From contig JAPLXL010000004.1 in assembly GCA_026396115.1 (NCBI GenBank), positions 19,805 through 83,804 of the forward strand: a stretch of 64,000 nucleotides of DNA, read 5' to 3'. How positions within the stretch are numbered: the stretch's first letter is position 1; each line of letters starts with the position of its first letter. Under the pieces are notes generated by a model that worked only from the letters and a program-made list of their open reading frames with translations, was not told the origin of the DNA and searched no databases. A program made the position numbers and the translations under genes. Below, piece by piece: positions 12,767-52,934 of the stretch. The DNA comes from Candidatus Nealsonbacteria bacterium. Lineage in GTDB: Bacteria > Patescibacteriota > Minisyncoccia > Minisyncoccales > RBG-13-42-11.

Positions 12767-14855
12767 AAGACGAAGAGTACTTCGTCCGTCGAGTCAAATA
12801 CGAGACGAAAGAAGAAAAACTTTTCTTCGCACTCTTCTTCACATTCGCTTCCATAAATGGAAACTCGGTAACAGAAGAATTCAACTCGCTTTTAAGGAAG
12901 ACATTGAGCCTCACGAGATTCTTTTGGATTCTCTTGCCGAAAAAAAAGAAAAAGAGTTGGGCCTTTCGGAAAAGAAATTTGAAGTCCCTCTTCTAAAAAG
13001 AATTATCCAAAGTTTTTTTATTTTTTGTTTTTTTATAATATTGTTTCTTTTTTTTAAAACCTTTCAACTTCAGGTGGTTGAAGGAAAAAATTTTATCCAA
13101 CTGGCAGAGAGAAATAAATTTATCATTCACCATATTCAGGCGGAGAGAGGAGTTATTTATGATAAAAACTTAGAACAATTGGTTTTTAACAAATCAACAT
13201 TTGATTTAATTTGCGAAAAAAGTAAGATTCCTCAAGATGAAGCCGAGAAAGAAAGAATTTTACAACAAGTTTCAAAGTTTCTTGAAAAAGACGTTAAAGA
13301 GCTAAAAAAAGAAATCGACGAATCTGAATCCGATCAAGTTTTGATTGCTAAAAATCTTTCTCATCAGGAATTAATTTTATTTGAAACAAGAATTGACGAG
13401 TTCCTGGGCTTCCAAATAAAAAACAATGTTATCAGAGAATATAGAGATGGTGAAGTTTTTAGCCAGATTATCGGCTATACGGGAAAAATAAAAAGCGAAG
13501 AATTTGAGGCAGCCCCCGAATTTTATTTAATTAATGATTATGTTGGTAGAACCGGCGTAGAAAATTTTTACGAAAGATTTTTGAGAAAAAATCCTGGAAA
13601 ATTAAGAATTGAAAGAGATGTTTTTGAAAACGTAATTTCCAAAGAAGTTGTTTCTCTGCCAGAATCCGGAAAGAGTTTGGTTTTGTGGTTGGATGCCGAT
13701 TTGCAGAGAAAGACAGAAGAAGAATTGGAAAAAAAATATAAAGAAATTGGAGCCAAAGGAGCAATAGCCATAGCCATGGATCCCAAAACCGGCGGCATAT
13801 TATCTTTGGTTTCTCTACCCAGTTTTGATAATAATTTATTCCAAAAGGGAGCTGACCAAAAATCTCTTCAAGCTCTTTTGGAAGATTCTCAAAATCTTAA
13901 TTCGCTCTTCGACCGAGCGATTTCCGGAAGATATCTGACGGGTTCAACCATAAAACCCTTAATTGCTTCAGCCGCTCTTGAAGAAAAAATAATTAATCCT
14001 GATGAAAAAATTAATTGTCAGGGGCTGATAGAGGTTGAACACACCTATACATCTGAAACCACTGAATTTCTCGACTGGACAGTGCACGGCTGGACGGATT
14101 TAAGAAAAGCCATTGCTGAATCTTGTAACGTTTACTTTTATACAGTAGGAGGAGGATATAAAGAACAAGAAGGTTTGGGACCGACCAAAATTAAAGAATA
14201 CTTAGAACTTTTTGGCTGGGGGGAGAAGACCGGTATTGATCTTCCTGGCGAAATTAATGGTTTTATTCCCGATAAAGAATGGAAAAAAAGAGTTTTAGGA
14301 GAAGGTTGGTGGGATGGTAACACTTATAATCTTTCAATCGGCCAGGAATATCTTCAAATTACTCCCTTGGAAGTGGTGACTAGTTTTTCAGCCATTGCTA
14401 ATGGCGGAAAATTGCTTCAGCCTCAAGTGGTTAAAGAAATAATTACTACTTCAGGCACCTCAACTGAAGTTTCAGTAGTCGAAGAAGATTTATCTTCTTC
14501 TTCACCCTTCGCTGCGGCTCGGGTAGTTAAGGAATTTGAGCCAGAAATTATTAGAGAAAACTTTATTGATCCTGGAAATCTTCAAATTGTTAGGGAGGGA
14601 ATGAGGCAGGCAGTAACCGGACAAAATTCTCCTCTGGCCTCGTCCGTAATATTGAATTCCTTGCCCATAGCTGTTGCCGCCAAAACCGGGACAGCCGAAT
14701 TGGGAGGAGATAGATATCATAACTGGGTTACTGTTTTTGCGCCTTACGAAGATCCGGAAATTGTTTTAACGGTGATGATTGAAGATGTTAAAGGCGTTCA
14801 GGCAGCTGTCTTGCCCGTGGCCAAAGCAATTTTAGAATGGTATTTTACTAAATAA
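12735..14855 (+). CDS. mrdA: Penicillin-binding protein 2 (elongasome transpeptidase)
   Basis: 706 aa; TM helix then PBP dimerisation and transpeptidase domains (STIKP = SxxK, KTGTAE = KTG); mreCD neighbours; two repeat inserts. Confidence 0.87.
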   Translation: MLEFLSFKKFKRRRVLRPSSQIRDERRKTFLRTLLHIRFHKWKLGNRRIQLAFKEDIEPHEILLDSLAEKKEKELGLSEKKFEVPLLKRIIQSFFIFCFFIILFLFFKTFQLQVVEGKNFIQLAERNKFIIHHIQAERGVIYDKNLEQLVFNKSTFDLICEKSKIPQDEAEKERILQQVSKFLEKDVKELKKEIDESESDQVLIAKNLSHQELILFETRIDEFLGFQIKNNVIREYRDGEVFSQIIGYTGKIKSEEFEAAPEFYLINDYVGRTGVENFYERFLRKNPGKLRIERDVFENVISKEVVSLPESGKSLVLWLDADLQRKTEEELEKKYKEIGAKGAIAIAMDPKTGGILSLVSLPSFDNNLFQKGADQKSLQALLEDSQNLNSLFDRAISGRYLTGSTIKPLIASAALEEKIINPDEKINCQGLIEVEHTYTSETTEFLDWTVHGWTDLRKAIAESCNVYFYTVGGGYKEQEGLGPTKIKEYLELFGWGEKTGIDLPGEINGFIPDKEWKKRVLGEGWWDGNTYNLSIGQEYLQITPLEVVTSFSAIANGGKLLQPQVVKEIITTSGTSTEVSVVEEDLSSSSPFAAARVVKEFEPEIIRENFIDPGNLQIVREGMRQAVTGQNSPLASSVILNSLPIAVAAKTGTAELGGDRYHNWVTVFAPYEDPEIVLTVMIEDVKGVQAAVLPVAKAILEWYFTK
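12769..12870 (+). repeat. GCPE repeat, long form, in frame in the PBP2 N-terminal tail
   Basis: GACGAAGAGTACTTCGTCCGTCGAGTCAAATACGAGACGAAAGAAGAAAAACTTTTCTTCGCACTCTTCTTCACATTC-GCTTCCataaatGGAAAC-TCGGTA; near-identical to the reverse complement of 10997-11093. Confidence 0.9.
14478..14524 (+). repeat. GCPE repeat, short form, in frame in PBP2
   Basis: GTCGAAGAAGAtttaTCTTCTTCTTCACCCTTCGCTGCGGCTCGGGT, read as VEEDLSSSSPFAAARV. Confidence 0.88.
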
Positions 14856-14880
14856 AAAAAATAGGATAAACTTAAATATC

Positions 14881-16347
14881 ATGGCAACAATTGATGAAAT
14901 AAGAAAAACTCGGCTAAAAAAACTGAAGGTGATTCAAAAAGCCGGGTTTTTGGCTTATCCTTCAGAAACCAAAAGAACTTACAAAATAAAAGACGCTCTT
15001 AAAAATTTTACCAATTTTGCCCGTTTGAAAAAAGAAATAATCCTGGCAGGCAGGATTAAGTCGCAAAGAGGTCATGGTGGCTCTACTTTTTTGGATGTTG
15101 AAGACGGCACTGGGAAAATTCAAGCTTTTTTAAAGAAGAATATAATAGGAGAAGAAGGATATAAATTTTTCTTAGACAGTTTTGATATTGGTGATTTTAT
15201 TGAATTAAGAGGAACTTTATTTAAAACTCAAAAAGGAGAAAGAACAATAGAAGTTGCTGATTTTAAGATGTTGGCAAAAAGTTTGTTGCCTTTGCCAGAA
15301 AAATGGCATGGTTTAACTGATATTGAAGAAAGATTCAGAAAAAGATATCTTGATTTGATTTTTAACCTTGAAGTTAAAAAAAAGTTTGAGATGAGGACTA
15401 AAATTATAAAAGAAATCAGAGAATTTTTAGACAAAGAAGAATTTTTAGAGGTAGAAACGCCAATCTTGCAGCCAATTTACGGGGGAGCTAAAGCCAAACC
15501 CTTTAAAACTCATTTGAATGCTCAAGACCTTGATTTATATTTGAGAATTTCTTTGGAACTCTATTTAAAAAGATTGTTGGTAGGAGGTTTTGAAAAAGTT
15601 TATGAAATAGGCAAATGTTTCCGCAACGAAGGAGTAGACAGATCCCACAATCCTGATTTTACAATGCTTGAGTTTTACTGGGCTTACGCTGACTATAAAG
15701 ATTTAATGAAGTTAACCGAAAAAATGTTTGAAACTTTGCTGAAAAAGATCTTTGATAAATTAGAAATTCAGTATGAAAATAAGAAGATTAATTTTAAAAC
15801 TCCCTGGCCGAGAATAGAATTTGATCAAATTTTGAAAAAATATACCAAAATTAATTTAAAGGAAATTAATTTAGAGACTCTTAAAAGAGAAGCCCAAAAA
15901 TTAGGCATCGGAAAAGGAAAAAGCGTTAATAAAACTGAAATTGCTGACGAAATTTACAAAAAATACTGTTTGCCGAAAATTTGGCAGCCAACTTTCGTTA
16001 TTAATCATCCAACAGGTTTCTTCCCTCTTGCCAAGGCTCGAGAAAGCGATCCGGGAAAATTGTCTAATTTTCAATTAGTTGTGGCGGGCTGGGAGTTGAT
16101 TAATGCCTTTTCCGAATTGAATGACCCAATTGAACAGAGAAAAAGGTTTGAAGAACAGGAAAAACTTTTTGAAGAAGGTTTTGAAGAAGCTCAAAGAATG
16201 GATGAGGATTTCATCGAGGCCTTGGAATATGGAATGCCTCCGGCTGCCGGTTTCGGCATGGGGATAGACAGATTGGTTGCCTTATTAACAGATTCTCATA
16301 GTTTAAGAGAAGTAATATTATTCCCGACGATGAGACCAGGGCGATGA
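14881..16347 (+). CDS. lysS: Lysine--tRNA ligase (class II)
   Basis: 488 aa; OB anticodon-binding domain plus class II core (FRNEG, GMGIDRL motifs). Confidence 0.95.
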   Translation: MATIDEIRKTRLKKLKVIQKAGFLAYPSETKRTYKIKDALKNFTNFARLKKEIILAGRIKSQRGHGGSTFLDVEDGTGKIQAFLKKNIIGEEGYKFFLDSFDIGDFIELRGTLFKTQKGERTIEVADFKMLAKSLLPLPEKWHGLTDIEERFRKRYLDLIFNLEVKKKFEMRTKIIKEIREFLDKEEFLEVETPILQPIYGGAKAKPFKTHLNAQDLDLYLRISLELYLKRLLVGGFEKVYEIGKCFRNEGVDRSHNPDFTMLEFYWAYADYKDLMKLTEKMFETLLKKIFDKLEIQYENKKINFKTPWPRIEFDQILKKYTKINLKEINLETLKREAQKLGIGKGKSVNKTEIADEIYKKYCLPKIWQPTFVINHPTGFFPLAKARESDPGKLSNFQLVVAGWELINAFSELNDPIEQRKRFEEQEKLFEEGFEEAQRMDEDFIEALEYGMPPAAGFGMGIDRLVALLTDSHSLREVILFPTMRPGR

Positions 16348-16395
16348 GAACTTTGTTCTCATCTTCCACCTCGCTTTAATAAATTAAAACTCGGT
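16339..16395 (+). repeat. GCPE repeat, full form
   Basis: GGGCGATGAGAACtttGTTCTCATCTTCCACCTC-GCTTTAAtaaaTTAAAAC-TCGGTA; contains the lysS stop codon; 8 nt before serS ATG. Confidence 0.85.
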
Positions 16396-16403
16396 AAATA
16401 AAT

Positions 16404-18370: not shown

Positions 18371-19869
18371 TTTATTTTATTTTAATTTTTTGGTTTTTAA
18401 TTTTTATTAAACTTTTGTTTTTTTGGCTTTGGATTTGGCAACTGAAAGAATATCATATTGGCCGTTTTCTGGCTCATTTTGAAACCCAGGCAGCCAAAAA
18501 AATTCTTTCCAGTTTTTGGCGATTAAAATACCCAAAATTTACCAAAAAAATTATAGTTATCTCATTTACTAGCGTTCTTTTGGCAGCTTTATTGTCGTTT
18601 TTTCTTTCTGCATCTCTTGTTCTTTTTTTTATTGTTTTAGCTCCTTTGATTTTTTCTTTAATTGTTTTGATTTTTCAGATACCAACTCTTATTTGGCGAA
18701 AAAGATTATTGAAAAAAGCCAGAGAAAAACGGCAAAGCTTTAAAAATCTTTTGGTTATCGGCATTACTGGTTCTTATGGCAAAAGCTCAACCAAGGAATT
18801 TTTAGCCACAATTCTGTCTGAAAAGTATAAAGTTTTGAAAACGAAAAAAAATCAAAATTCGGAAGTAGGAATTTCCCAATGTATTTTAAATGATTTAAAA
18901 CCTGAGCATGAAATTTTTGTTTGCGAGATGGGTGCTTACAATAGAGGAGGGATAAAACTATTGTGCGACATTGCCAGACCCAAAATTGGAATTTTAACCG
19001 GGATAAGCGAACAGCATATGTCAACCTTCGGCTCGCAAGAAAATATTATTAAGACAAAATATGAATTAATTGAAAGTCTGCCGCAAGATGGTTTGGCTAT
19101 TTTAAATGGCGATAATGACTATTGTTATGAACTTTTCAAAAAAACCATCAATTCAAAAAGGATTTATAGTTCCCAGCCCACCATTGCTAATTTCCCTACC
19201 GATATTTACACGAGCAGTGTAGCCGTAAACAGAGAGTTTTTGAGTTTCAAAGTTTTAGATAAAAGCGGGGAATCAGCGATTTTTAAAGTAAGCCTTTCGG
19301 GAGGTCATAATGTTTTAAATATTTTAGCTGCTGTTTGTTGTGCCAGAGAATTAGGAATGACCCTTGAAGAAATTGCCCTGGCTTCGCAAAAAATCGAAAG
19401 CTGGCAATCGGGAATGCAACTCAAAAAAGGGATAAATGGTTTAAATATCATTGATGCTACTTATTCAGCCAATCCTGACGGAGTTTTATCGCATTTAGAA
19501 TATTTAAAAATCTGGCCTGGGAAAAGAATAATTATTATGCCTTGTTTAATTGAATTAGGTGATGCGACAATCGAAGTTCATAAAAGAATAGGGGAAAAGA
19601 TTGGCGAAATTTGTGACTTGTCTATAATTACTACCCGGGAGCGATTTCAAGAAATAGGAGAGGGAGCGATAGAAAAAGGAATGAAAGGAGAAAACATTTT
19701 ATTTATTGAAAACCCAAAAGAAATTTTTGAAAAAGTTAGAAGTTTTTGCCGCGAGAGCGAAGAGGATAAATCCTCTTCTTCCCCCTTTGCTGTCGCTCGG
19801 AAGGGCGATGTAATTCTTTTGGAGAGCAGAGTGCCGAAAGAAGTCATTGAGTCATTGAGTCTATGTTAA
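18367..19869 (+). CDS. murF: UDP-MurNAc-tripeptide--D-Ala-D-Ala ligase (MurF) with N-terminal membrane extension
   Basis: Mur ligase P-loop GITGSYGKSST, central and C-terminal Mur ligase domains; about 115 aa of TM helices at N-terminus; one repeat insert near C-terminus. Confidence 0.8.
   Translation: MIYFILIFWFLIFIKLLFFWLWIWQLKEYHIGRFLAHFETQAAKKILSSFWRLKYPKFTKKIIVISFTSVLLAALLSFFLSASLVLFFIVLAPLIFSLIVLIFQIPTLIWRKRLLKKAREKRQSFKNLLVIGITGSYGKSSTKEFLATILSEKYKVLKTKKNQNSEVGISQCILNDLKPEHEIFVCEMGAYNRGGIKLLCDIARPKIGILTGISEQHMSTFGSQENIIKTKYELIESLPQDGLAILNGDNDYCYELFKKTINSKRIYSSQPTIANFPTDIYTSSVAVNREFLSFKVLDKSGESAIFKVSLSGGHNVLNILAAVCCARELGMTLEEIALASQKIESWQSGMQLKKGINGLNIIDATYSANPDGVLSHLEYLKIWPGKRIIIMPCLIELGDATIEVHKRIGEKIGEICDLSIITTRERFQEIGEGAIEKGMKGENILFIENPKEIFEKVRSFCRESEEDKSSSSPFAVARKGDVILLESRVPKEVIESLSLC
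19755..19800 (+). repeat. GCPE repeat, short form, in frame in murF
   Basis: GAGCGAAGAGGAtaaaTCCTCTTCTTCCCCCTTTGCTGTCGCTCGG, read as SEEDKSSSSPFAVAR. Confidence 0.88.
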
Positions 19870-21269
19870 AGCCGATTTCAATATCTTTATCGCCCAATAC
19901 GGAAAAAGACGATATTCTTTTAACTTTTAAATTACTTTTCCAGCCTTGGCGCTGGAAAAAAGAACGCAACGAGAACAATTCTCGTTGTATTGAATTGGAA
20001 GAAGAATTTAAAAAATATTTAAGCGCAAAATACGCAATTGCGTTTAACAGCGGCCGGTCGGCGCTGATGGCGATTTTGAATTCGTTGGAGTTAAACCAAG
20101 ACGACGAAATTTTGCTGCAGGCATTTACCTGCAATGCAACAGCTAATCCAATTATTTGGTCCGGCTTAAAGCCGGTTTATGTAGATTGCGATGAAAGGAC
20201 TTTCAATATTGATATTGAAGATTTAAAAAGAAAAATTACGCCAAAGAGTAGAGCGGTGATGGTTCAACACACTTTTGGATTAGCAGTAAATTTAGACGAA
20301 ATTTTAGAAATTTGCCGTCAGGGCGAAGAAGATAAATCTTCTTCTTCCACCGAGCTTCCGCAAGAAGCGAAGGTAAAGAAGAAGGCGGAGCCTTCTTCGC
20401 CACACAACGCTAAAGCTCGGGAAAACAATTTAATTTTAATTGAAGACTGTGCTCACTCGCTTGGCGCCGAATACAAGGGCAGAAAAGTGGGGACTTTTGG
20501 CAGAGCAGCTTTTTTTAGTTTTTCAAGGGATAAAGTTATTTCTTCTGTTTATGGCGGAATGGCTGTAACCAACGATGATGAAGTAGCGAAAAAACTTCGA
20601 GAATATCAAGAAAAAATAGGTTTTCCCTCTTACTGCTGGATTTTTCAGCAATTGTTGCATCCGGTTTTAATGAATTGGTTGATTTTACCCACTTATAAGA
20701 TTTTCGGGAAATATCTTTTAATTTTATTTCAACGGCTTCAGATTTTATCAAAAGCAGTTCACTGGAGAGAGAAAAGGGGATTAAGACCAGGTTATTTTCC
20801 AAAAGGTCTTTGCAATGCTTTAGCGGTTTTGGCCCTTAATCAATTTAAAAAATTAGAAAGATTTAATAATCACCGGAAAGAAATTGCTGAAATTTACCGT
20901 AAAGAATTAAAAGAGGAGGCAAAGCCTTCTTCGCTCACCCGAGCGACAGCGAAGGGGGAAGAAGAGGATTTATCCTCTTTGCTCGAATTGCCTCAAGAAA
21001 AAGAACAAATTTATTTAAGGTTTGCAGTAAAACATCCAAAAGCTCATGAGATTATCAAAAAAGCTTGGCAGAAAAATATTTTAATAGGAGATTGGTATAC
21101 AAGCCCGATTGCTCCTCACGATACGAAACTAAATAAGCTTCAATATCAGTTGGGAAGTTGCCCAAAAGCTGAAAAGCTTTCAAGAGAAACCTTTAATCTG
21201 CCGACCCACATAAACATTTCTCAAAGAGAAGCCAAAAAAATTATTGGTTTTTTAGAATCATGGAAGTAA
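19863..21269 (+). CDS. DegT/DnrJ/EryC1/StrS-family aminotransferase (two repeat inserts)
   Basis: Family-typical blocks (AFNSGRSAL, VMVQHTFG, SFSRDK with PLP Lys); about 100 aa longer than usual because of two repeat clusters. Confidence 0.8.
   Translation: MLKPISISLSPNTEKDDILLTFKLLFQPWRWKKERNENNSRCIELEEEFKKYLSAKYAIAFNSGRSALMAILNSLELNQDDEILLQAFTCNATANPIIWSGLKPVYVDCDERTFNIDIEDLKRKITPKSRAVMVQHTFGLAVNLDEILEICRQGEEDKSSSSTELPQEAKVKKKAEPSSPHNAKARENNLILIEDCAHSLGAEYKGRKVGTFGRAAFFSFSRDKVISSVYGGMAVTNDDEVAKKLREYQEKIGFPSYCWIFQQLLHPVLMNWLILPTYKIFGKYLLILFQRLQILSKAVHWREKRGLRPGYFPKGLCNALAVLALNQFKKLERFNNHRKEIAEIYRKELKEEAKPSSLTRATAKGEEEDLSSLLELPQEKEQIYLRFAVKHPKAHEIIKKAWQKNILIGDWYTSPIAPHDTKLNKLQYQLGSCPKAEKLSRETFNLPTHINISQREAKKIIGFLESWK
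20321..20422 (+). repeat. GCPE nested composite, in frame in DegT gene
   Basis: Forward SL1 GGCGAAGAAGAtaaaTCTTCTTCTTCC, then a reverse full copy ACCGAGCTTCCgcaaGAAGCGAAGGTAAAGAAGAAGGCggaGCCTTCTTCGCC, then forward tail ACACAACGCTAAAGCTCGGGA. Confidence 0.8.
20912..20982 (-). repeat. GCPE repeat, short form (reverse) plus extra SL1-like hairpin, in frame in DegT gene
   Basis: AGAGGAGGCaaaGCCTTCTTCGCTCACCCGAGCGACAGCGAAGGGGGAAGAAGAGGAtttaTCCTCTTTGC, read as TRATAKGEEEDLSS. Confidence 0.8.
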
Positions 21270-22332: not shown

Positions 22333-23238
22333 ATGGTTAGAGGATATAGAAAACCCCATAGATTTAAAAAAAGAAAACCGATTTATCGCAATCGTTTTTT
22401 TTGGTCGGCGATTTTAATTTTAATTTTTTTCTCCTCTTTTTTTTATTTTCTGTTTTTCACGGAGTTTTTTCAGGTTGAAAAAATCAACATTGTCGGCCTG
22501 GAGCAGGTTTCGGAAGAGCAATTAAATTTATCAATTAAAGACAAATTGGGAAATAGAATTTTATTTTTTCCTACCAGAAATATTTTTTTGCTGGATTTGA
22601 ATAAAATAAAAGAAGATATTTTGGAAAAAATCCACCGCATAGCCAAAATTGAAATTCGCCGTAATTTTCCAGATAGTTTAAATGTTTTAGTTACGGAAAG
22701 GAAAATTATAGCAACCTTTTGCCAGGAGGGCGAAGAAGATAAATCTTCTTCTTTACCCTTCGTTGCGACTCGGGAGGTCAATTGTTTTGCCTTAGACAAG
22801 GAAGGTATTGTTTTTGAAGAAAAACCAATCGATCGTACCATTCAGCCGTTGATAAAGGCTTTAATTTCTGCCGATGAAATAAGCCTGGGGAAAAAAGTAA
22901 TTGAAAAAGAGGACTTAATTTCGATATTAGAAATAAATTCTCAGCTTAAGGAAGATTTAAATATTCCGGTCAAAGAATTTATCATTTCCTCCAAAACCGA
23001 GCTTCCGTTTACGGAAGCGAATGTAGATAAGAGAACTTCATTCTCTTCGATAGAAAAATTAATAGCTGTAACTCAAGATGGTTGGGAGCTTTATTTTGAT
23101 CTTCAAGAGGACGTAAAATGGCAATTAACAAAACTAAAAGCGCTTTTGGAAGAAAAAATCTCGGAGGAGCAAAGAAAGGATTTGGAGTACATTGAGCTAA
23201 GGTTTGGCAATTTTGCCAACCCAAAATATAAAGATTAA
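22333..23238 (+). CDS. ftsQ: Cell division protein FtsQ/DivIB-like (POTRA domain)
   Basis: N-terminal TM helix, POTRA-like block (VEKINIVGLEQVSEEQL..VLVTERK); two repeat inserts. Confidence 0.68.
   Translation: MVRGYRKPHRFKKRKPIYRNRFFWSAILILIFFSSFFYFLFFTEFFQVEKINIVGLEQVSEEQLNLSIKDKLGNRILFFPTRNIFLLDLNKIKEDILEKIHRIAKIEIRRNFPDSLNVLVTERKIIATFCQEGEEDKSSSLPFVATREVNCFALDKEGIVFEEKPIDRTIQPLIKALISADEISLGKKVIEKEDLISILEINSQLKEDLNIPVKEFIISSKTELPFTEANVDKRTSFSSIEKLIAVTQDGWELYFDLQEDVKWQLTKLKALLEEKISEEQRKDLEYIELRFGNFANPKYKD
22728..22775 (+). repeat. GCPE repeat, short form, in frame in ftsQ
   Basis: GGGCGAAGAAGAtaaaTCTTCTTCTTTACCCTTCGTTGCGACTCGGGA, read as GEEDKSSSLPFVATRE. Confidence 0.88.
22996..23050 (-). 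repeat. GCPE repeat, full form, in frame in ftsQ
   Basis: ACCGAGCTTCCgtttaCGGAAGCGAATGTAGATAAGAGAACttcaTTCTCTTCGA. Confidence 0.8.
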
Positions 23239-23273
23239 CTCCACACCACTTTTACTATAATTGGTTGTTAGTA

Positions 23274-23324
23274 GTCGAAGAGATAAATCTCTTCTTCATC
23301 TTCGCTTCCTTCGGAAGCTCGATA
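23274..23324 (+). repeat. GCPE repeat, full form (first of head-to-tail pair)
   Basis: GTCGAAGAGATaaATCTCTTCTTCATCTTC-GCTTCCttcGGAAGC-TCGATA. Confidence 0.9.
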
Positions 23325-23370
23325 GTCGAAGAGATAAATTTCTTCTCTACCCTTCATTGTCATTCGGGTA
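23325..23370 (+). repeat. GCPE repeat, CATTGTCATTCGG-tail variant (second of pair)
   Basis: GTCGAAGAGATAAATTTCTTCTCTACCCTTCATTGTCATTCGGGTA. Confidence 0.8.
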
Positions 23371-28546: not shown

Positions 28547-28554
28547 TCTTAATT

Positions 28555-37686: not shown

Positions 37687-37705
37687 AAAGAAGATTAGGC
37701 ACTTA

Positions 37706-37760: not shown

Positions 37761-37773
37761 ATAAAATAAAAAA

Positions 37774-40278: not shown

Positions 40279-40280
40279 AT

Positions 40281-40337: not shown

Positions 40338-40338
40338 T

Positions 40339-43279: not shown

Positions 43280-43284
43280 TTCAA

Positions 43285-44055
43285 CTACCAAGCTTCCGAA
43301 GGAAGCGAAGTAGAAGAAGATTTCTTCTTCTCCACCTCAGCTGAAGCTTCGGTAGTTGAAGAAGAGGATTTATCCTCTTCGACTTTCTTTTTAAAATCAT
43401 TCCAATTAATCTCTCCGGCATTAGCTATAGGGCAAACTTCTTTAAATTGGCAATATCTACATTGCCAGTTTTTAGGGTAATCTGGCAATCTATCGGGAAT
43501 AATGTTTTTATCAATCTTTTTTTTAACATCATTTAAGGCGTCCAAGAGAGAAAGGACGCGTTTTTTATCATAATTTACTATAAAATCCTTTAATTGCTGG
43601 TTGTCTTTATTAACGTAAAGCAGTATTCCTCTGGGAATTTTAAAATAATGCAAATAAAGCTGGATTTGATCAATGTTTTCTTCTTTTGGTTCAATCAAGT
43701 TTTTAAAAATCATGCTGTTCATACTCTTGATATCTAAGACATATAAATTCTTTCCGTTACTGATTATGGCATCGGCCCTGCCCGAAATCAATTCCTGAGG
43801 AGGAATGTTTACTTCGGCAGCAACCACATGGATTTCTCTAATGCTTAAAAGAGGTTTCATAATAAGCTGATGAATGTGGTCGCCGTGATCGAATAATCTT
43901 AAAATATTTGCTTCCATTTCTTTCCGGGGCACATTTTTGAATTTAAAAAATATTGCCCTGGCGCATTTGCCGGCATCGGTAATGTAAAAGTGATGCTGTT
44001 CTTTGTCCTTTTGCCTATCCAAATAAAATTTATCAATGAGTTCTCTAAGAAACAT
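43285..44055 (-). CDS. PD-(D/E)XK nuclease, Cas4/RecB-like with Cys cluster; repeat-derived C-terminal tail
   Basis: GRADAI, VLDIKS (D-x-K), QIQLYLHY; one N-terminal Cys (GKCARA) plus CRYCQFKEVC; last about 35 aa encoded by repeat 43287-43383. Confidence 0.62.
   Translation of the reverse strand: MFLRELIDKFYLDRQKDKEQHHFYITDAGKCARAIFFKFKNVPRKEMEANILRLFDHGDHIHQLIMKPLLSIREIHVVAAEVNIPPQELISGRADAIISNGKNLYVLDIKSMNSMIFKNLIEPKEENIDQIQLYLHYFKIPRGILLYVNKDNQQLKDFIVNYDKKRVLSLLDALNDVKKKIDKNIIPDRLPDYPKNWQCRYCQFKEVCPIANAGEINWNDFKKKVEEDKSSSSTTEASAEVEKKKSSSTSLPSEAW
43287..43383 (-). repeat. GCPE triple composite unit
   Basis: ACCAAGCTTCCgaaGGAAGCGAAGTAGAAGAAGAtttCTTCTTC-TCCACCTCAGCTGAAGCTTCGGTAG-TTGAAGAAGAGGAtttaTCCTCTTCGAC. 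Confidence 0.88.
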
Positions 44056-44062
44056 AAATTTT

Positions 44063-44118
44063 TATCTCTTCGACCGCCGAACCGCAGTGAGGCTGAAGAA
44101 GAGATTTATCTCTTCGAC
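44063..44118 (-). repeat. GCPE repeat, variant
   Basis: TATCTCTTCGACCGCCGAACCGCAGTGAGGCTGAAGAAGAGATttATCTCTTCGAC; its SL1 arm supplies the rpsI ..SKR-stop codons. Confidence 0.7.
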
Positions 44119-44636
44119 CACTGAGGGGCTCTTCTGGCTCTTTTTAAGCCGAATTTCTTTCTTTCCCGCATTCTCGGATCTCTTTTTAAATAACCTGCCT
44201 TTTTTAGTTTTTTTCTAAAGTCGGGGTTAAACAAAACCAAAGCTCTGGCCACTCCGTGCCTAACAGCTTCAGCTTGTGAAACCGTCCCCCCTCCCTTTAC
44301 TTTTACTGAAACTTTAAATTGTTCCAGGCAATCCATTAAATTTAAGGGAGCATAAACTGCTTGCTGAAGTTCTATCGTTGGAAAATATTCTTCTAAAGGT
44401 TTTTCGTTAACCACCGAGCTTTCGCGAAGCGAAAGCGAAGGTAAAGAAGAGGACGAAGTCCTCTTCGACGAACCCCCTTCTTTCCGGGAAAAAAGGCGAA
44501 CCCTGGCAACGGCTGTTTTTCTTCTTCCCACGCCTTCAAAATATTTTTCTTTTTTTGTCTTCAAGGGCTCTTTGGTTTTTTTAGCGATAACGGTTTTTTT
44601 CGTTTTTTTTGTCATTGTTTTTTTCATAAATCGCAT
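44106..44636 (-). CDS. rpsI: 30S ribosomal protein S9 with in-frame repeat insertion
   Basis: GRRKTAVARVRL, VKGGGTVSQAEAVRHG, C-terminal RRAPQWSKR; Lys-rich N-terminal extension; 19-codon insert. Confidence 0.93.
   Translation of the reverse strand: MRFMKKTMTKKTKKTVIAKKTKEPLKTKKEKYFEGVGRRKTAVARVRLFSRKEGGSSKRTSSSSLPSLSLRESSVVNEKPLEEYFPTIELQQAVYAPLNLMDCLEQFKVSVKVKGGGTVSQAEAVRHGVARALVLFNPDFRKKLKKAGYLKRDPRMRERKKFGLKRARRAPQWSKR
44413..44469 (-). repeat. GCPE repeat, full form, in frame in rpsI (57 bp)
   Basis: ACCGAGCTTTCGCgaaGCGAAAGCGAAGGTAAAGAAGAGGAcgaagTCCTCTTCGAC, read as [19 protein letters not shown]. Confidence 0.92.
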
Positions 44637-44983: not shown

Positions 44984-45083
44984 ACCAAGCCCCGCGCAGC
45001 GGGGCGAATTCGAAGAAGATTCCTTCTTCTCCACCTCAGTTGAAGCTTCGGTAGGTGAAGATGAGAACGAATTTCTCATCGCC
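44984..45083 (-). repeat. GCPE triple composite unit
   Basis: ACCAAGCCCCGCgcaGCGGGGCGAATTCGAAGAAGAttcCTTCTTC-TCCACCTCAGTTGAAGCTTCGGTAG-GTGAAGATGAGAACgaattTCTCATCGCC; abuts rplM ATG. Confidence 0.88.
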
Positions 45084-45086
45084 TTG

Positions 45087-46200: not shown

Positions 46201-46830
46201 CTACTTTGAATAAAATGCAAAAATTGACGAGAGTTCTGCTGGAGAGGCAGCCTCTTCTAAATTTGGTGAAATTGTGACCTTTCCCTCTAAGTTCTTGATA
46301 TCTAATTCTAGCCAAGATGGAAGATTATGTTTTTTTAAAAGGGTGGGCAATTTTTGAAAGATGGTTTTTTTTGCGGAACCGGGGTTAATACTAATTTTGT
46401 CGCCTTTTTTAACCAAATAACCGGGGATATTAATTGGTTCATTATTTATCATAAAATGGCGATGGGAAACCATTTGACGGGCAGCAGTTCTAGAGGGAGC
46501 AAATCCAAATCTAAAAACTACATTATCTAAACGACTCTCTAATATCTTAATCAAAGCTGCTTCGGCATCCACGACTTTACCTCGCGCTTTTAAGATTTCT
46601 TTTACATATTTCCGCAATTGTCTTTCTTCTAAATTATACCAATTTTTTAATTTCTGCTTTTCTCTTAACTCTTTACCATATTCAGAAAGAGCCCTTGCTC
46701 TTCTTTTTGCTTTGGGACCGGGCGGATAAGGTTTTCTTATCATCGGACATTTCTGCGATAAGCACTTCTCTCCTCGCAAAAAAAGCTTTATTCCTAATCG
46801 ACGACAAATTTTACATTTAGAATCTTTCAT
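46201..46830 (-). CDS. rpsD: 30S ribosomal protein S4
   Basis: Start moved to ATG 46830 (MKDSKCKICRRLG..); Zn-ribbon Cys, S4 domain. Confidence 0.94.
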   Translation of the reverse strand: MKDSKCKICRRLGIKLFLRGEKCLSQKCPMIRKPYPPGPKAKRRARALSEYGKELREKQKLKNWYNLEERQLRKYVKEILKARGKVVDAEAALIKILESRLDNVVFRFGFAPSRTAARQMVSHRHFMINNEPINIPGYLVKKGDKISINPGSAKKTIFQKLPTLLKKHNLPSWLELDIKNLEGKVTISPNLEEAASPAELSSIFAFYSK

Positions 46831-46832
46831 AT

Positions 46833-46888
46833 ACCGAGCTTCCATTTATGGAAGCGAAGGTGAAGAAGAGGACGAAGTCCTCTTCGCC
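46833..46888 (-). repeat. GCPE repeat, full form (rpsK-rpsD spacer)
   Basis: ACCGAGCTTCCatttatGGAAGCGAAGGTGAAGAAGAGGAcgaagTCCTCTTCGCC; CTCGGTATATG junction with rpsD. Confidence 0.93.
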
Positions 46889-47744: not shown

Positions 47745-47861
47745 TTATCCTTGTCTTTGTTTATGTTTTGGGTTTTTTTTGCAAATAACATAAATTCGTC
47801 CCCTTCTGCGGACGATTTTACAATTTTTACAAATTTTCTTTATCGATGACCTAACTTTCAT
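47745..47861 (-). CDS. rpmJ: 50S ribosomal protein L36
   Basis: Not in ORF track (38 aa); hand translation [38 protein letters not shown]. Confidence 0.92.
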
Positions 47862-47863
47862 AT

Positions 47864-47920
47864 ACCGAGCTTTCGCGCAGCGAAAGCGAAGGTGAAGAAG
47901 AAAACGAAGTTTTCTTCGCC
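47864..47920 (-). repeat. GCPE repeat, full form (infA-rpmJ spacer)
   Basis: ACCGAGCTTTCGCgcaGCGAAAGCGAAGGTGAAGAAGAAAACgaaGTTTTCTTCGCC; CTCGGTATATG junction with rpmJ; extra half-site ATCGAGCTTT at 47922-47931. Confidence 0.93.
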
Positions 47921-47941
47921 TATCGAGCTTTATTTCTTTGA

Positions 47942-48157
47942 CTATTTTCCGCGGTATACTATTCTTCCTCTTTTTTCATCATAGGGACTTAATTCTACGC
48001 TAACATTGTCTCCGGGTAAAATTTTAATTCGGAACATTCTTAATTTTCCTGCTAAATAACAGAGAATTTCTCCTCCCTGATCTAACTTCACCTTAAAATG
48101 CGTACTGGGTAAAGCTTCTATAACAGTTCCGGTTTTTCTTAAATTTTTTTTATCCAT
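47942..48157 (-). CDS. infA: Translation initiation factor IF-1
   Basis: 71 aa S1-like OB fold; [31 protein letters not shown]. Confidence 0.94.
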
Positions 48158-48161
48158 TAAT

Positions 48162-48359
48162 TACCAAACTTCCATTACCGAGCTTCCGAAGGAAGTGAAG
48201 GTGAGAAAGAGTGCGAAGAAAGTAAGATTTCTTCTTCCCCCTTCGCTGTCGCTCGGGAGTGCGAAGAAAAGTTTTTCTTCTTTCGTTTCGTCTTTGACTC
48301 GACGAATGAAATTCTCTTTCGACTATGGAAGTGAAGTCGAAGAAGATTCCTTCTTCGAC
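48162..48359 (-). repeat. GCPE long form carrying a nested short-form copy, plus flanking partial copies
   Basis: ACCGAGCTTCCgaaGGAAGTGAAGGTGAGAAAG[AGTGCGAAGAAA]gtaagatTTCTTCTTCCCCCTTCGCTGTCGCTCGGG[AGTGCGAAGAAA]AGTTTTTCTTCTTTCGTTTCGTCTTTGACTCGACG..; bracketed 12-mers at 48210-48221 and 48258-48269. Confidence 0.85.
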
Positions 48360-48403
48360 CAGACAATTTCTTAGTTTATCAAAATTTATTAAATTAGTCA
48401 ATC

Positions 48404-48460
48404 ACCGAACCCCGCCCACAGCGGGGCGAAGGTTAAGAAGAGAACAAAGTTCTCTTCGCC
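48404..48460 (-). repeat. GCPE repeat, full form
   Basis: ACCGAACCCCGCccacaGCGGGGCGAAGGTTAAGAAGAGAACaaaGTTCTCTTCGCC. Confidence 0.88.
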
Positions 48461-48461
48461 T

Positions 48462-49783: not shown

Positions 49784-49840
49784 AATATAATTTTATCAAA
49801 AATTTATTTATTGTAAAGTTGCTCGGATTCTTCTAATTCT

Positions 49841-49872
49841 TAAGCGACAGCGAAGAGGTAAGAAGAATTCGG
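49841..49872 (-). repeat. Degenerate GCPE-like fragment
   Basis: AAGCGACAGCGAAGAGGTAAGAAGAATTCGGG (compare GAGCGACAGCGAAGGGGGAAGAAGAGG at 20941). Confidence 0.35.
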
Positions 49873-49879
49873 GTTATTT

Positions 49880-51628
49880 TTATTCTAAAATAGCCTGAAT
49901 TCTTCGCACTCCGGCACCAGAACTTTCTTCTTTTATAATTTTAAATAAGCCCAATTCTGAAGTTCTTTTAATGTGGGGACCGGCACAAATTTCTTTCGAG
50001 AAGTCTTCGATTAAAAAAACTGTTACGATTTCGGGATATTTTTCTTTAAAAACCGAGTTTCCGCGAAAAGGAAACGAAGGTGAAAAAGAGGATTTATCCT
50101 CTTTGCCCAAAGCTAAAGCCCCGCTTTTTATTGCAGCCTTATAATTCATCTCTTCTTTTTTTACCTCCAAATCTTCTTTGATTTTCTGATTAACAAGACT
50201 TTGAACTTTTTTAATTTCATTTTCTGTCATCTTTTGATGATGAGAAAAATCAAATCTTAATCTTTGAGAAGTAATATCTGAACCCATTTGTTTAACATGC
50301 TCCCCTAAGATTTTTCTTAAGGCAGCCTGAAGCAAATGAGTGGCGGTATGAAGTTTTGTTGTCTCATAAGTCACTTCCTTTCCTACTCCGCCAAATTTAC
50401 TTTCTACCCCGGCTCTGGAAATCTCTTGATGTTTTTTAAAAGCCTCTTCAAATCCTTTTTGATCAATATTTAAATTTCTTTCTTTAGCAAGTTCAATTGT
50501 TAGTTCTAAAGGGAAACCATAGGTATCATACAGATGAAAAGCATCAACCCCAGAAATATTCCCTTTTTTGGAAATGTTCTCAAACTGCTTTAATCCTTCA
50601 TGGAGAGTTCTTTCAAATTTTTCTTCCTCTTGTTGAATTACGGTTAGAATCTCTTCTTCTTTTGATTTAATTTCCGGATAAACATTTTTGTAGATTTCAA
50701 TTACTTTTTGAGCCAGAAGAATTAAGAAATTAGCAGGTAAATTAAGCAATTTGCCGTATCTGATTGCTCTCCTTAGAATTCTTCTCAGAACGTATCCCTT
50801 CTCAACATTGGAAGGCAAAATCCCATCCGAAATCAAAAAAACTGCACTCTTCACATGATCAGCAATAATCCTTCCCCCTTTTAAATTTGCAGGGGTCCGA
50901 CCCGTGTATTTTTGAAGCTCGCCGATAATTGACTCGAATAAATCGGTCTCAAAGACGCTGGATTTATTTTGAACAATCATTGCTAATCTCTCTAATCCCA
51001 TGCCAGTGTCAACGCCCTTTTGTACCAATGGAGTAAGTTGCTTATTTTTATCTTGATAATATTCATTAAAAACCAGATTCCAAACTTCGATGCCCTTAAT
51101 ATGAATTTCGGTTGTTGGGCCGCAGGGGCCTTCTTGACCGGTCGGACCCCAAAAATTATCTGCTCTTCCGCATTTTTTTATTTTATTTTTATGAACTCCT
51201 AATTCTTTCCAAATTTCAACCGATTCTTCGTCTTCCGGCACATCTTTATCACCCTCAAAAACTGTAAAAATTGTTTCCTTCAGGGGCAATTTTAATTCTT
51301 TAAAAATAAACTCGTAAGCCCAACTTATCGCTTCCTTTTTGAAATATCCCCCAAAAGAAAAATTACCCAACATTTCAAGAAAAGTTAAATGGCTTTCATC
51401 TCCCACTTCTTCAATATCAGAAGTTCTAAAACATTTCTGGCAAGAACAGACATTCTGACCATAAGGGGATTTTTCTACCAGATAATAAGGCTTAAATTGC
51501 TGCATTCCGGCCGTGGTAAAAAGAACCGAGGGGTCGGTCGGAATAAGCGAGATGGGGGGCACTATTTTATGCCTCTTTTTTTCAAAGAATTTCAAAAATT
51601 GTTCTCTTAATTTTCTCGAGGTCATCAA
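49880..51628 (-). CDS. alaS: Alanine--tRNA ligase, compact form (no C-Ala domain) with repeat insert
   Basis: FTTAGMQQFKP catalytic block, editing-domain HTATHLL and CAGPHI motifs; 582 aa versus about 870 in model bacteria. Confidence 0.9.
   Translation of the reverse strand: MMTSRKLREQFLKFFEKKRHKIVPPISLIPTDPSVLFTTAGMQQFKPYYLVEKSPYGQNVCSCQKCFRTSDIEEVGDESHLTFLEMLGNFSFGGYFKKEAISWAYEFIFKELKLPLKETIFTVFEGDKDVPEDEESVEIWKELGVHKNKIKKCGRADNFWGPTGQEGPCGPTTEIHIKGIEVWNLVFNEYYQDKNKQLTPLVQKGVDTGMGLERLAMIVQNKSSVFETDLFESIIGELQKYTGRTPANLKGGRIIADHVKSAVFLISDGILPSNVEKGYVLRRILRRAIRYGKLLNLPANFLILLAQKVIEIYKNVYPEIKSKEEEILTVIQQEEEKFERTLHEGLKQFENISKKGNISGVDAFHLYDTYGFPLELTIELAKERNLNIDQKGFEEAFKKHQEISRAGVESKFGGVGKEVTYETTKLHTATHLLQAALRKILGEHVKQMGSDITSQRLRFDFSHHQKMTENEIKKVQSLVNQKIKEDLEVKKEEMNYKAAIKSGALALGKEDKSSFSPSFPFRGNSVFKEKYPEIVTVFLIEDFSKEICAGPHIKRTSELGLFKIIKEESSGAGVRRIQAILE
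50052..50106 (-). repeat. GCPE repeat, full form, in frame in the alaS editing domain
   Basis: ACCGAGTTTCCgcgaaaaGGAAACGAAGGTGAAAAAGAGGAtttaTCCTCTTTGCC, read as GKEDKSSFSPSFPFRGNSV. Confidence 0.88.
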
Positions 51629-52163: not shown

Positions 52164-52181
52164 ATTATTTTATCAGATATT

Positions 52182-52934
52182 TCAGTTTAAATCAATATCT
52201 TTTACTATTTTAATAAACTCCTTCGCGTTTAAAGATATACCACCGATTAAAAGTCCTTGGAAACCCCCTTTTTTGATGTAATCTCCGGCATTTTGAAAAT
52301 TAACGCTGCCTCCATAAAGGATGGGAATTTTTTTATTTAATACTTCCTTTTTAATTAATATTCTCATTTTATTGGCTTTTTCGACACTACAAGGTTTACC
52401 CGTGCCAACAGCAAAAATGGGCTCATAGGCGATTATCAAATTCGATAATTCTTTTTTGACAAGACCGCTTAAATCTTTTTTAAGGCGAAGAGGGCTTCGG
52501 CCTCTTCTTCCACCTCGTTTCCTTAAGAAGCTCGGTATTTGAGAAATATTATCAATACATAAAATTACTTTTAACCCCGTCTTCAAAGCGGCTTTTAATT
52601 TTTTGTTTATCATTTCATCGGTCTCTTTCTGATATTTTCTTCTTTCGGAATGGCCGATAATTACATATTTTATGCCCGTATTTTTTAACATTAAAGGTGA
52701 AATCTCGCCGGTAAAAGCGCCCTTTTCTTCCCAAAAACAACTTTGCCCTCCAAAGCTTACAACGGAAGATGGCTCCTGACTGACAAGCAAAGAAAGATAA
52801 ACAAATGGCGGACAAATTACCACCTCTGAATTTTTTACATTTTTTATCCCTTTTCTTATTGAATCAAAAAGCTTCTCAGCTTCCCGTAAAGTTATTGGAT
52901 TACATTTCCAATTAGCGACAATTAATAGTTTCAT
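52182..52934 (-). CDS. tpiA: Triosephosphate isomerase with in-frame repeat insertion
   Basis: ANWKCN, IIGHSERR, AYEPIFAVGTG, YGGSV motifs. Confidence 0.93.
   Translation of the reverse strand: MKLLIVANWKCNPITLREAEKLFDSIRKGIKNVKNSEVVICPPFVYLSLLVSQEPSSVVSFGGQSCFWEEKGAFTGEISPLMLKNTGIKYVIIGHSERRKYQKETDEMINKKLKAALKTGLKVILCIDNISQIPSFLRKRGGRRGRSPLRLKKDLSGLVKKELSNLIIAYEPIFAVGTGKPCSVEKANKMRILIKKEVLNKKIPILYGGSVNFQNAGDYIKKGGFQGLLIGGISLNAKEFIKIVKDIDLN
52484..52537 (+). repeat. GCPE repeat, full form, in frame (antisense reading) in tpiA (54 bp)
   Basis: GGCGAAGAGGGCttcGGCCTCTTCTTCCACCTC-GTTTCCTTaaGAAGC-TCGGTA, read on the gene strand as PSFLRKRGGRRGRSPLRL. Confidence 0.9.

Follow-up and report, generated by a model that had tools for sequence, protein, structure and literature searches.

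What are the short hairpin repeats that lie, without breaking the reading frame, inside genes for proteins as unrelated as ribosomal protein uS9, alanyl-tRNA synthetase (AlaRS) and TIM? The question is raised by a 64,000-nt stretch of contig JAPLXL010000004.1 (positions 19,805–83,804; hereafter the window, to which all coordinates refer), from a metagenome-assembled genome of Candidatus Nealsonbacteria. An initial annotation of this DNA had listed such copies in open reading frames (ORFs), likened them to Rickettsia palindromic elements (RPEs), and guessed at a host from the candidate phyla radiation (CPR, Patescibacteria). Our analysis indicates that they are probably very small (45–65 nt), non-autonomous, structured mobile DNA repeats of the repetitive extragenic palindromic (REP)/RPE type, proliferated in one Candidatus Nealsonbacteria lineage. 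The guess at the host was right: homolog matches and relatives of the seryl-tRNA synthetase (SerRS; MCX6759245.1 in the window) place it in the Parcubacteria, Candidatus Nealsonbacteria. Its species-level relatives in GTDB have SerRS proteins 62–78% identical, and those that bear a lineage name are mostly labelled Nealsonbacteria or Parcubacteria.

Repeats were mapped by repeat finding together with three nhmmer profiles (long form, short form and module C), and overlapping matches were merged. The window holds dozens of direct and inverted repeat families; merged repeat regions number 51 and total 3,065 nt, 4.8% of the window. A 19-nt core occurs eight times at three or fewer mismatches, against 0.01 expected from shuffles. 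Units measure 45–65 nt, are bipartite, with two hairpins, and belong to one modular family. Hairpin A, with consensus CGAAGARRA-loop-TYYTCTTCG, is followed by the linker TTCACCTTCGC, by a hairpin B with variable stem, and by the end GCTCGGTA. The full unit as read from aligned copies is 5'-(A/G)G(G/T)CGAAGAG..loop..CTCTTC-TTCACCTTCGC-(stem B)-loop-(stem B')-GCTCGGTA-3'. The short form, of 48 nt, is without the hairpin B stem; module C consists of CGTCGAGTCAAAGACGAGACG plus a GAAGAA hairpin, and a CTTCAGCTGAAG variant is also present. Head-to-tail arrays and nested composites of these units are frequent.

Both hairpins were recovered by RNAalifold, pairing being kept through two-sided changes in 9 of 12 pairs. 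Folded as single-stranded DNA, the best unit reaches -14.5 kcal/mol (z -5.3). Stem mismatches of the G.T and A.C kinds are equal in number, 11 each, and so give no specific pointer to structure at the RNA level. No Rfam family matches any unit, either at the gathering threshold or at E<=1.

About three quarters of the regions are in spacers or at gene termini. The genome is compact, and copies in spacers typically span the whole spacer, often with an ATG directly after CTCGGTAT. Of the units that lie outside ORF interiors, 30 point the same way as the local genes and 8 the opposite way. The window is AT-rich (33–45% GC). Up to ~38 kb its genes lie on the plus strand, beyond that on the minus strand, with a flip of GC skew at that point. 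Gene strand and GC skew are thus confounded, so that transcription and replication are inseparable as the cause of the 30:8 bias.

Relatives were sampled as 160 syntenic loci around the SerRS and AlaRS genes (2.06 Mb), with further loci added later. The family is sparse among the 160, with 71 regions in 30 loci, or 0.035/kb vs 0.8/kb in the window, and judged by this distribution its expansion appears specific to one Candidatus Nealsonbacteria lineage. Counting the later loci, 34 of 129 regions in related loci, from many different genomes, lie deep inside ORFs of >=150 aa. Near-identical paralogs within the window (36025–36071 and 48259–48305, 98%; 23273–23332 and 54074–54133, 95%) would reflect recent copying.

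The case for mobility comes above all from two close relatives. L161 spans window 42.6–63.0 kb at 96.0% identity over aligned columns, and L165 spans 10.4–28.6 kb at 95.7%, so that together they cover ~36.5 kb of the window. Against ~1,500 substitutions in this comparison there were ~40 unit-sized indels, in both directions, and about half of the copies were not common to the window and these 96%-identical relatives. Eight in-ORF units were found in the window only: in mreD (48 nt), PBP2 (net 54 nt), murF (48 nt), DegT (a nested reverse long form of 54 nt, and 60 nt at a second site), ftsQ site 2 (57 nt), tpiA (54 nt) and alaS (57 nt). The relatives have in-ORF inserts of their own, of 45 nt in PBP2 (L165), 48 nt in uL18 (L161) and 93 nt at a second tpiA site (L161), while ftsQ site 1, grpE and the DegT short form are common to the window and L165. 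Units are thus gained and lost as discrete, seamless blocks in either orientation, and from the clean differences between such near-identical genomes we conclude that the element is still moving.

Individual events bear out both directions of change. Precise loss is seen at tpiA, where the outgroups L081, L162 and P0003 are filled and L161 and P0007 are cleanly empty. In L092, alaS reads GCTTTAGTCAAAGAAAAA, which is the 5' junction of the filled allele fused at an AAAGA microhomology. The nested unit of DegT is an insertion of one unit into another. L081, the closest syntenic genome in a metagenome scan, has only 2 of ~14 sites in common with the window.

Junctions are precise. At tpiA, for example, the empty site tctcaaa|ttaaaaaag corresponds to tctcaaa-(54 nt)-ttaaaaaag, with 1 base of ambiguity. 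Most clean in-ORF events are likewise ambiguous by 1 nt; the exceptions, both in L161, are the second tpiA site (2 nt) and uL18 (5 nt). This argues that there is no target-site duplication (TSD). Nor are there terminal inverted repeats (TIRs): CGA is all that the 5' end, GGCGAAGAG, has in common with the reverse-complemented 3' end, TACCGAGC. Left flanks are A/T-rich (TAA, AAA, CTT, TCT, AGA), with no single motif. A candidate TSD or target motif on the other side was rejected; 3' flanks do resemble the unit's 5' end, RGGCGAAGA (Mann-Whitney p 1.6e-11), but the empty sites show no TSD, and the likeness is largely due to head-to-tail arrays and to gene starts of the ATGAAGA type.

These comparisons leave next to no room for the idea that the segments are ordinary variable loops, or assembly artefacts, in place of inserted repeats. 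Orthologs do vary in length at the PBP2, mreD and second DegT sites, as such an idea would have it. But the same 48–60-nt DNA recurs in ten unrelated genes and dozens of spacers, 96%-identical relatives have seamless empty sites, and the filled alleles turn up again in assemblies made independently from different samples.

Ten genes have sites deep inside their ORFs, twelve in all and every one stop-free. The host genes are mreD-like, PBP2, murF, DegT, ftsQ, grpE, a FAD oxidoreductase, uS9, alaS and tpiA; DegT and ftsQ have two sites each, PBP2 has one deep and one N-terminal, and the other seven have one each. Units inside ORFs are in sense orientation in eight cases and antisense in five. 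Net additions are 48 nt for the short form, 51–60 nt for the long form and module C, and 102 nt for the DegT composite, all multiples of three. The list is the one drawn up in the initial annotation, and every copy that it placed does overlap a unit within an uninterrupted ORF; its locations stand, while the exact unit limits, as set by the empty sites, are shifted by a few bases. The four peptides that it quoted, EEDLSSSSPFAAARV, EEDKSSSSPFAVAR, EEDKSSSLPFVATRE and EESKLSSSPSAFARE, are exact. It had described these as a single peptide type, a uniformity that follows in part from the TAA that one of the three sense frames has in the common ATAAAT loop. Its host identities agree with Pfam for PBP2, MurF, DegT, FtsQ-POTRA, GrpE, the FAD oxidoreductase, uS9, AlaRS and TIM. 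For the gene that it named mreD, the gene order mreC-mreD-mrdA supports the name, but the window ORF has no Pfam match; the insert-free ortholog of L165 gives a weak MreD match (E 7e-4, 20.2 bits, cut-off 24).

In the mreD-like ORF 12398–12766, a short form of 48 nt (12534..12581, -) encodes aa 46–62, LPESQRRVKNRIYSLRL; it is missing from L165, which has the seamless empty site cttt|ttag, and its peptide is carried by 0 of 44 loci spanning the site. PBP2 (ORF 12735–14855) has a 102-nt composite of module C and long form at its N-terminus (12768..12869, +; aa 12–45), a window-only block relative to L165 that is 92% complementary to 11011–11096. This copy is in a poorly conserved N-terminus, so its coding status hinges on the start codon; its length of 102 nt and the matching ORF call in L165 would fit a coding segment. 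The deep PBP2 copy, in the transpeptidase domain (14478..14525, +; short form, VEEDLSSSSPFAAARV), adds net 54 nt relative to L165 and L166 and lies in a stretch without alignment to solved PBP2 structures. Near the MurF C-terminus, the 48-nt short form (19755..19802, +; ESEEDKSSSSPFAVAR) is missing from L165 and L166.

At DegT site 1 (20321..20422, +) a short form is split by a nested reverse long form at 20349–20402, for a total of 102 nt or 34 aa; L165 and L008 hold the uninterrupted short form only, and the nested 54 nt are window-only. DegT site 2 (20915..20982, -) is a short form with an extra small hairpin that adds 60 nt (...LTRATAKGEEEDLSSLL). It is window-only relative to L165, and L166 and L167 hold a different, reverse long-form unit there. 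At ftsQ site 1, the 48-nt short form (22728..22775, +; EGEEDKSSSLPFVATRE) recurs in L165 with a different 3' half and is not in L166. At ftsQ site 2, the 57-nt long form (22995..23051, -; TELPFTEANVDKRTSFSSI) is window-only relative to L165, with the seamless junction ccaa|agaaaa, and the closest orthologs have a clean 19-aa gap.

The grpE copy, a 48-nt short form (28391..28438, +; VEESKLSSSPSAFARE), is also in L165, and the insert-spanning sequence includes ...VEESKLSSSPSAFAR. The FAD-dependent oxidoreductase (ORF 35863–36840) has a module C (36021..36071, +; 51 nt, SSSQRRDERRKTFLRT) that is 98% complementary to 48259–48305; the single ortholog recovered, from L032, is empty. In uS9, a long form (44411..44470, -) is in the loop after VARVRLF, the insert-spanning sequence including ...TSSSSLPSLSLR. 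That site is empty in L081 and L162, and the L161 loop holds a different unit in the opposite orientation. The alaS copy, a 57-nt long form (50053..50109, -; GKEDKSSFSPSFPFRGNSV), splits the conserved motif GALAF|FKEKYP, and L161, L162 and L081 are without it, with a seamless empty site. The 54-nt long form in tpiA (52484..52537, +; IPSFLRKRGGRRGRSPLRL) is antisense to the gene and follows beta-strand 5; L081, L162, P0003 and L118 have it, and L161 and P0007 do not.

Host proteins were compared with orthologs from up to 85 related loci per gene. Inserts appeared as clean gaps of 45–102 nt, always a multiple of three, in the closest orthologs, and no ortholog free of the DNA motif had a homologous peptide at the site. 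Counting all loci that span a site, the insert was gapped in 44/49 for PBP2, 53/58 for murF, 44/46 for the first DegT site, 38/44 for the first ftsQ site, 32/34 for uS9 and 76/81 for alaS. Lower fractions were seen in length-variable loops: 14/41 for mreD, 26/43 for the second DegT site, 32/44 for the second ftsQ site, 17/21 for grpE and 14/47 for tpiA, where many of the non-gapped loci hold the same insert or a canonical longer helix 5.

Solved structures place two of the inserts: uS9 gains ~18 residues in its VARVRLF loop, and GrpE, relative to 4ani and 1dkg, makes a clean gain of exactly 16 residues. For the window TpiA, an AlphaFold2 model gave a confident TIM barrel (mean predicted local distance difference test score, pLDDT, 86; predicted template modelling score 0.86), with pLDDT <50 for residues 142–154, within and just after the insert. 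In this model the insert is in a low-confidence loop, apparently at the surface. The parallel with RPEs, proposed from sequence alone, is borne out; it extends to in-frame palindromic repeats in housekeeping proteins, the one modelled insert being so placed. Alignment to Protein Data Bank structures had suggested that the TpiA element replaces part of helix 5. This was ruled out, since the clade already lacks that segment; the short loop of close relatives, ILCIDKISQI-KKDL, holds the clean 54-nt insertion. We note that the start of helix 5 in this TpiA clade is short by ~14 residues, among them the GE(T/S) that usually follows beta-5 (ILCIDKISQI-KKDL vs ILCIGETEKERRKGKT...). The AlaRS insert is an exception to loop placement, as it splits a conserved motif; the alignment to archaeal AlaRS structures was too poor to place it on a solved structure.

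The in-ORF copies would be translated as hydrophilic, probably disordered peptides of 15–20 residues. We infer this from the filter for stop-free multiples of three and from the structure model. All in-ORF indels are multiples of three, whereas intergenic lengths are mixed (46, 56, 58, 64, 65, 106 nt etc.), a signature of selection on translated sequence. The hydrophilic reading frames of the units are also preferred over the others. Both observations bear on the possibility that the inserts are removed before the protein functions, by RNA excision, translational bypass or protein splicing, with host proteins left unaltered. Nothing direct speaks for removal, although the hairpins could in principle be processing signals, and we regard it as very improbable. 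It would not call for stop-free multiples of three, nor for particular hydrophilic frames; units of 45–60 nt are far below known self-splicing introns and inteins in size, and no Rfam intron model matches them.

As small, non-autonomous mobile repeats, the units enter and leave the chromosome as exact blocks with neither TSD nor TIR, and would be moved by a trans-acting enzyme that recognises the hairpins. Single-strand transposition of the HUH/Y1 type, as in IS200/IS605 and REP-RAYT systems, yields subterminal hairpins, no TIR or TSD, and exact excision. Because the units have these same features, the best fit would be a RAYT or IS200/IS605 type of single-strand HUH/Y1 transposase ('peel-and-paste'). 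Copies survive in two kinds of place: in the tiny spacers between genes, where most are sense-oriented and they often reach the next start codon, and inside genes, as stop-free multiples of three in a permissive loop or terminus.

Several points weigh against this account. Pfam analysis of 35 ORFs shows no transposase of any kind in the window, and tblastn with IS608 TnpA found no match in 2.2 Mb of relatives, a weak test made with a possibly inexact query against incomplete genomes. Genes for a Xer-like tyrosine recombinase, a LAGLIDADG protein and a Cas4-like nuclease are present in the window, and nothing ties them to the repeats. The 30:8 sense bias of intergenic copies hints at selection or at strand-specific insertion. 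Compensatory stem changes inside ORF copies, as in tpiA, are not explained by simple decay. Purely selfish decay likewise leaves unexplained the near-identity and private variants of same-site inserts in distant genomes, described below. Translation of the inserts, finally, is a matter of inference and not of observation.

Same-site inserts are best seen in alaS. L087, L095, L102 and L130 have an insert at the same codon as the window, 89–98% identical, in 300-nt flanks that are only 65–72% identical (80% for one pair). The murF insert of the distant L013 is likewise 90% identical vs 71% in the 300-nt flanks, and the tpiA insert of L118 is 94% identical vs 68%. The alaS copies are closer to each other than to any window paralog, and have private variants, a CAAAGAGG/CCTCTTT stem and a GTTTCC..GGAAAC hairpin B, that were found nowhere else in the fetched DNA. 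In a neighbour-joining tree of AlaRS, star-like and with weak resolution, the five carriers are spread over separate branches, and the closest relatives of the window lack the insert. Genomes can also differ in the form or orientation of the unit in a given loop: at a second hot spot in AlaRS, after TVYSI, the forms differ among L118, L146, L109 and L126, and TpiA loop 5 has two very different unit classes across genomes, with stems that differ by compensatory pairs within a class. This suggests either that same-site copies are under nucleotide-level constraint and have undergone many precise losses, or that a site-matched variant re-inserts. In a scenario to which we give a low but real chance, the in-ORF copies are more than passive passengers: seamless, hairpin-guided insertion and excision, possibly with re-invasion that is site-matched or homing-like, would hold specific units at particular codons of essential genes across deeply diverged Parcubacteria, under nucleotide constraint that exceeds the host gene's.

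Two further alternatives draw on the same data. One is that the units are not merely selfish DNA but cis-acting nucleic-acid signals that the host selects and keeps at ~1/kb, such as an uptake-type signal, a site that organises the chromosome, or a hairpin that binds protein or serves in RNA processing or stabilisation. Copies in ORFs would then be there through selection for the signal. A selected signal fits the conservation of same-site inserts in ORFs, which far exceeds that of the host gene, and also fits compensatory changes that maintain stem pairing even in ORF copies, the sense bias between genes, the density of ~0.8/kb, and linker motifs common to many Parcubacteria genomes. However, density varies more than 20-fold among related genomes, most of which have almost no copies, and about half of the copies are missing from 96%-identical relatives. 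The balanced G.T and A.C mismatches show no sign of selection on an RNA strand, and Rfam offers no matching family. Uptake sequences (DNA uptake sequences, DUS, and uptake signal sequences, USS) are 10–30-nt motifs that arise by point mutation and leave protein length unchanged, not 48–60-nt insertions; those seen here are discrete and of 45–102 nt. On balance we consider a host-selected signal unlikely.

The other alternative, somewhat less probable still, is that some in-ORF copies are site-specific 'homing' insertions, variants matched to a given conserved target that re-invade empty alleles within or between species and are seamlessly excised; their patchy distribution over the phylogeny would follow. 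The alaS insert in GALAFFKEKYP, on five scattered AlaRS branches with the nearest relatives empty, would fit homing, as would its private variants and the varied forms and orientations held by the same loops. But flanks diverge right up to the junction, so that no co-conversion tract is visible; the tree itself is star-like; no endonuclease is linked to the units; and repeated hits on a few permissive loops, together with frequent precise loss, would give the same pattern.

How do mobile repeats of this size compare with known families? RPEs (Ogata et al. 2000/2002) are the classic in-frame palindromic repeats, of ~150 bp, with 44 copies in the whole R. conorii genome (PMC10969869). Intragenic REPs tagged with GTAG or CGTC occur in several phyla, including in tRNA synthetases, and RPE-4 and RPE-6 have been equated with CGTC REPs (Di Nocera et al. 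2013, PMC3733652). Our units resemble RPEs in their ORF-preserving insertion into unrelated housekeeping proteins with a recurring peptide (12 sites in 10 genes), in having copies in RNA genes or spacers, in the want of a recognisable transposase, and in the small, reduced genome of the host. They differ in being 45–65 nt long, not ~100–150 bp, and in having two hairpins and a linker in place of one long palindrome. The CPR lineage is unrelated, and the sequence appears to be different. Copies are here mostly intergenic and sense-oriented, internal sites are far denser (12 in 64 kb vs the 44 copies of a whole R. conorii genome), and there is clear ongoing gain and loss between 96%-identical genomes.

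Intragenic repeats of the REP type are at least as close as RPEs. Like REPs and their mosaic BIME clusters, the units are short, high-copy, mostly extragenic hairpin repeats with alternative complementary stem variants and mosaic clustering. Some copies are in frame in known proteins, tRNA synthetases included, and they are presumed to be mobilised in trans. REPs, however, are defined by an unpaired GTAG or CGTC at one end in >90% of units. No such conserved tag is present here: the bases before hairpin A are (T/A/G)AG(G/T), with GTAG in ~5/42 units, and the CGTC of module C belongs to a stem. Head-to-tail arrays dominate, whereas head-to-head or tail-to-tail dimers are typical of REPs; our unit is bipartite with conserved linkers; and neither the window Pfam analysis nor the 2.2-Mb tblastn with IS608 TnpA turned up a RAYT.

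With IS200/IS605 elements and palindrome-associated transposable elements (PATEs) the units share subterminal hairpins, the lack of TIR and TSD, and seamless excision. Elements of the IS200/IS605 type show strand and orientation bias. Left flanks of our units have no fixed 4–5-nt target, being A/T-rich only, no TnpA or RAYT gene was detected in the searches above, and the units are much smaller than known PATEs. MITEs, or miniature inverted-repeat transposable elements, such as Correia/NEMIS, ERIC, RUP and Nezha are also small, non-autonomous and transcribed with their neighbours, with occasional in-frame ORF fusions, but they have 15–30-bp TIRs, TSDs and lengths of 70–300 bp. The literature that we searched held no report of such elements in CPR/Patescibacteria. 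New here are the very high density, the ongoing gain and loss, the reuse of the same sites, and same-site inserts so much better conserved than their flanks (89–98% vs 65–72%).

The remaining copies, in spacers, gene ends and RNA genes, are spread over a window that contains a 23S-5S rRNA region, two tRNAs, a cell-wall/division cluster, chaperone genes and ribosomal-protein operons. A long form fills a whole spacer at 3666..3729 (+), ending at the ATG of ORF 3725–4141. One unit (9872..9931, +) is in a group-I-intron-like insert of the 23S rRNA gene. That gene (6898–10677) is 3,780 nt long vs a 2,925-nt model, and its insert, especially 9495–9962, matches RF00028 at 43.6 bits, under the gathering score of 50 (E 1e-9). 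This insert also contains a LAGLIDADG-like reading frame that has decayed, with an intact LAGLIDADG_2 ORF at the matching place in L165, and the gene has at least one further insertion at ~10080. Units flank the 5S rRNA gene (10701..11094, -) at 10701–10763 (-), at 10909–10973 (+), and as a composite at 10991–11094 (-); 10909–10973 and 10996–11094 are in the window but not in L165. Three sense units (11353..11583, +; 11353–11408, 11467–11527 and 11541–11583) are 5' of mreC or in its called N-terminus, and the mreC product has 273 aa in L165 vs 318 aa in the window.

Elsewhere on the first half of the window, an intergenic long form (16340..16401, +) lies between a class II aminoacyl-tRNA synthetase gene (14881–16347, tRNA-synt_2) and serS and is not in L165. 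Two units 3' of ftsQ (23270..23369, +), 95% complementary to 54074–54133, are also not in L165. An antisense unit (28549..28607, -) separates grpE and dnaK. Two head-to-tail long forms fill the spacer before the uL9 gene (33069..33185, +), and another such pair (35753..35867, +) ends at the ATG of the oxidoreductase gene. Three intergenic sense units flank a prenyltransferase gene (36861..37761, +; 36861–36922, 37629–37692 and 37705–37761).

Just beyond, a free-standing LAGLIDADG endonuclease ORF (38107–38625, -) adjoins the Xer-like tyrosine recombinase (38634–39581, -). The pair is at the exact switch of gene orientation and GC skew (~36–38 kb), which may be a replication terminus.

Downstream of gltX are two units (40142..40338, -; 40142–40198 and 40274–40338). 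In a divergent region, two short forms (42486..42650, +) are crossed by both a MurG-C ORF (-) and ORF 42482–43279 (+). The MurG-like ORF (in 41932–43279) has the C-terminal glycosyltransferase-28 domain only (aa 66–228 of 246), with a repeat-encoded N-terminus, and overlaps head-to-head with the 265-aa ORF of unknown function that is open over the same units on the other strand. Composite units (43280..43384, -) form the C-terminal tail of the Cas4-like PD-(D/E)XK ORF 43285–44055, and within this tail a 45-nt module (43312–43356) is window-only relative to L161. The spacer between uS9 and the Cas4-like gene holds one unit (44077..44119, -); in L081 that spacer is only 10 nt. Composite units just 5' of the conserved part of uL13 (44985..45084, -) inflate the called ORF 44636–45079 by ~32 aa: the Pfam domain begins at aa 35 and the L081 alignment at aa 33, and a 45-nt module (45009–45053) is window-only.

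The best-scoring long form, which gave the folding energy above, lies between the uS11 and uS4 genes (46826..46888, -) and is missing in L081. At least six units of mixed orientation make up an intergenic cluster (47857..48461, -; 47857–47921, 48170–48305, 48316–48359 and 48423–48461), of which several blocks are window-only or L161-only. At the 3' end of alaS, a block of 72 nt that includes a degenerate unit (49835..49906, -) is window-only. An antisense intergenic unit upstream of tpiA (52959..53004, +) is window-only relative to L161, and an intergenic long form (54066..54132, -) is so relative to both L161 and L081. Two units (59133..59241, -) lie between the uL18 and uS5 genes. A long form (62280..62343, +) makes up the C-terminal tail of uL29 (ORF 62271–62507, minus strand), where the Pfam domain ends at aa 59 of 78 and the L162 ortholog has 60 aa. 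Further units occupy ribosomal-protein operon spacers (62503..63024, -; 62503–62564 (-) and 62984–63024 (+)).

Some differences from the relatives of ~96% identity fall outside the repeat family. A (TCT/TCC)n tract in a 61-aa acidic ORF (11162–11185) varies in length, and an 18-nt tandem duplication (49716–49733, in ORF 48488–49783) is polymorphic. A 49-nt block not in L161 (55617–55665) contains a perfect, terminator-like hairpin (TTTTCCACGGCCGTGGAAAA). L161 has, between the uS13 and uS11 genes, a GC-rich and apparently structured insert of 166 nt (15411–15576 of L161, ~47352 of the window) that is missing from the window and unrelated to the repeats.

The family has practical consequences for work on these genomes. 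ORF calls are inflated at N- and C-termini, and phylogenetic marker proteins gain lineage-specific indels. Two contigs from Logan SRR20698646, L168 and L169, apparently from the same population, are only 2–2.7 kb long, and one of them stops inside the oxidoreductase gene, ~130 nt from the repeat unit; short-read assemblies are probably fragmented by such repeats. Exact uL9 and prenyltransferase proteins matched only short Logan contigs, probably of the same population, which add nothing on presence or absence at the oxidoreductase site.

The genomes of CPR bacteria (Patescibacteria) are considered streamlined, with little mobile DNA; here ~5% of the sequence is a tiny repeat, and ~1 in 7 genes of the window holds an in-frame copy, among them those for uS9, AlaRS, GrpE, TIM and cell-wall/division proteins. 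If units are in truth held at specific codons, this would mean either a function of the DNA or RNA hairpin within coding sequence or a new class of homing micro-element. The clean filled and empty alleles at ~96% identity supply natural with/without pairs for each insert, and make the questions long associated with RPE-like elements directly testable on metagenomic, metatranscriptomic and metaproteomic data that already exist: whether such inserts are translated, by what means they move with neither TIR nor TSD, and whether new protein loops arise from them.

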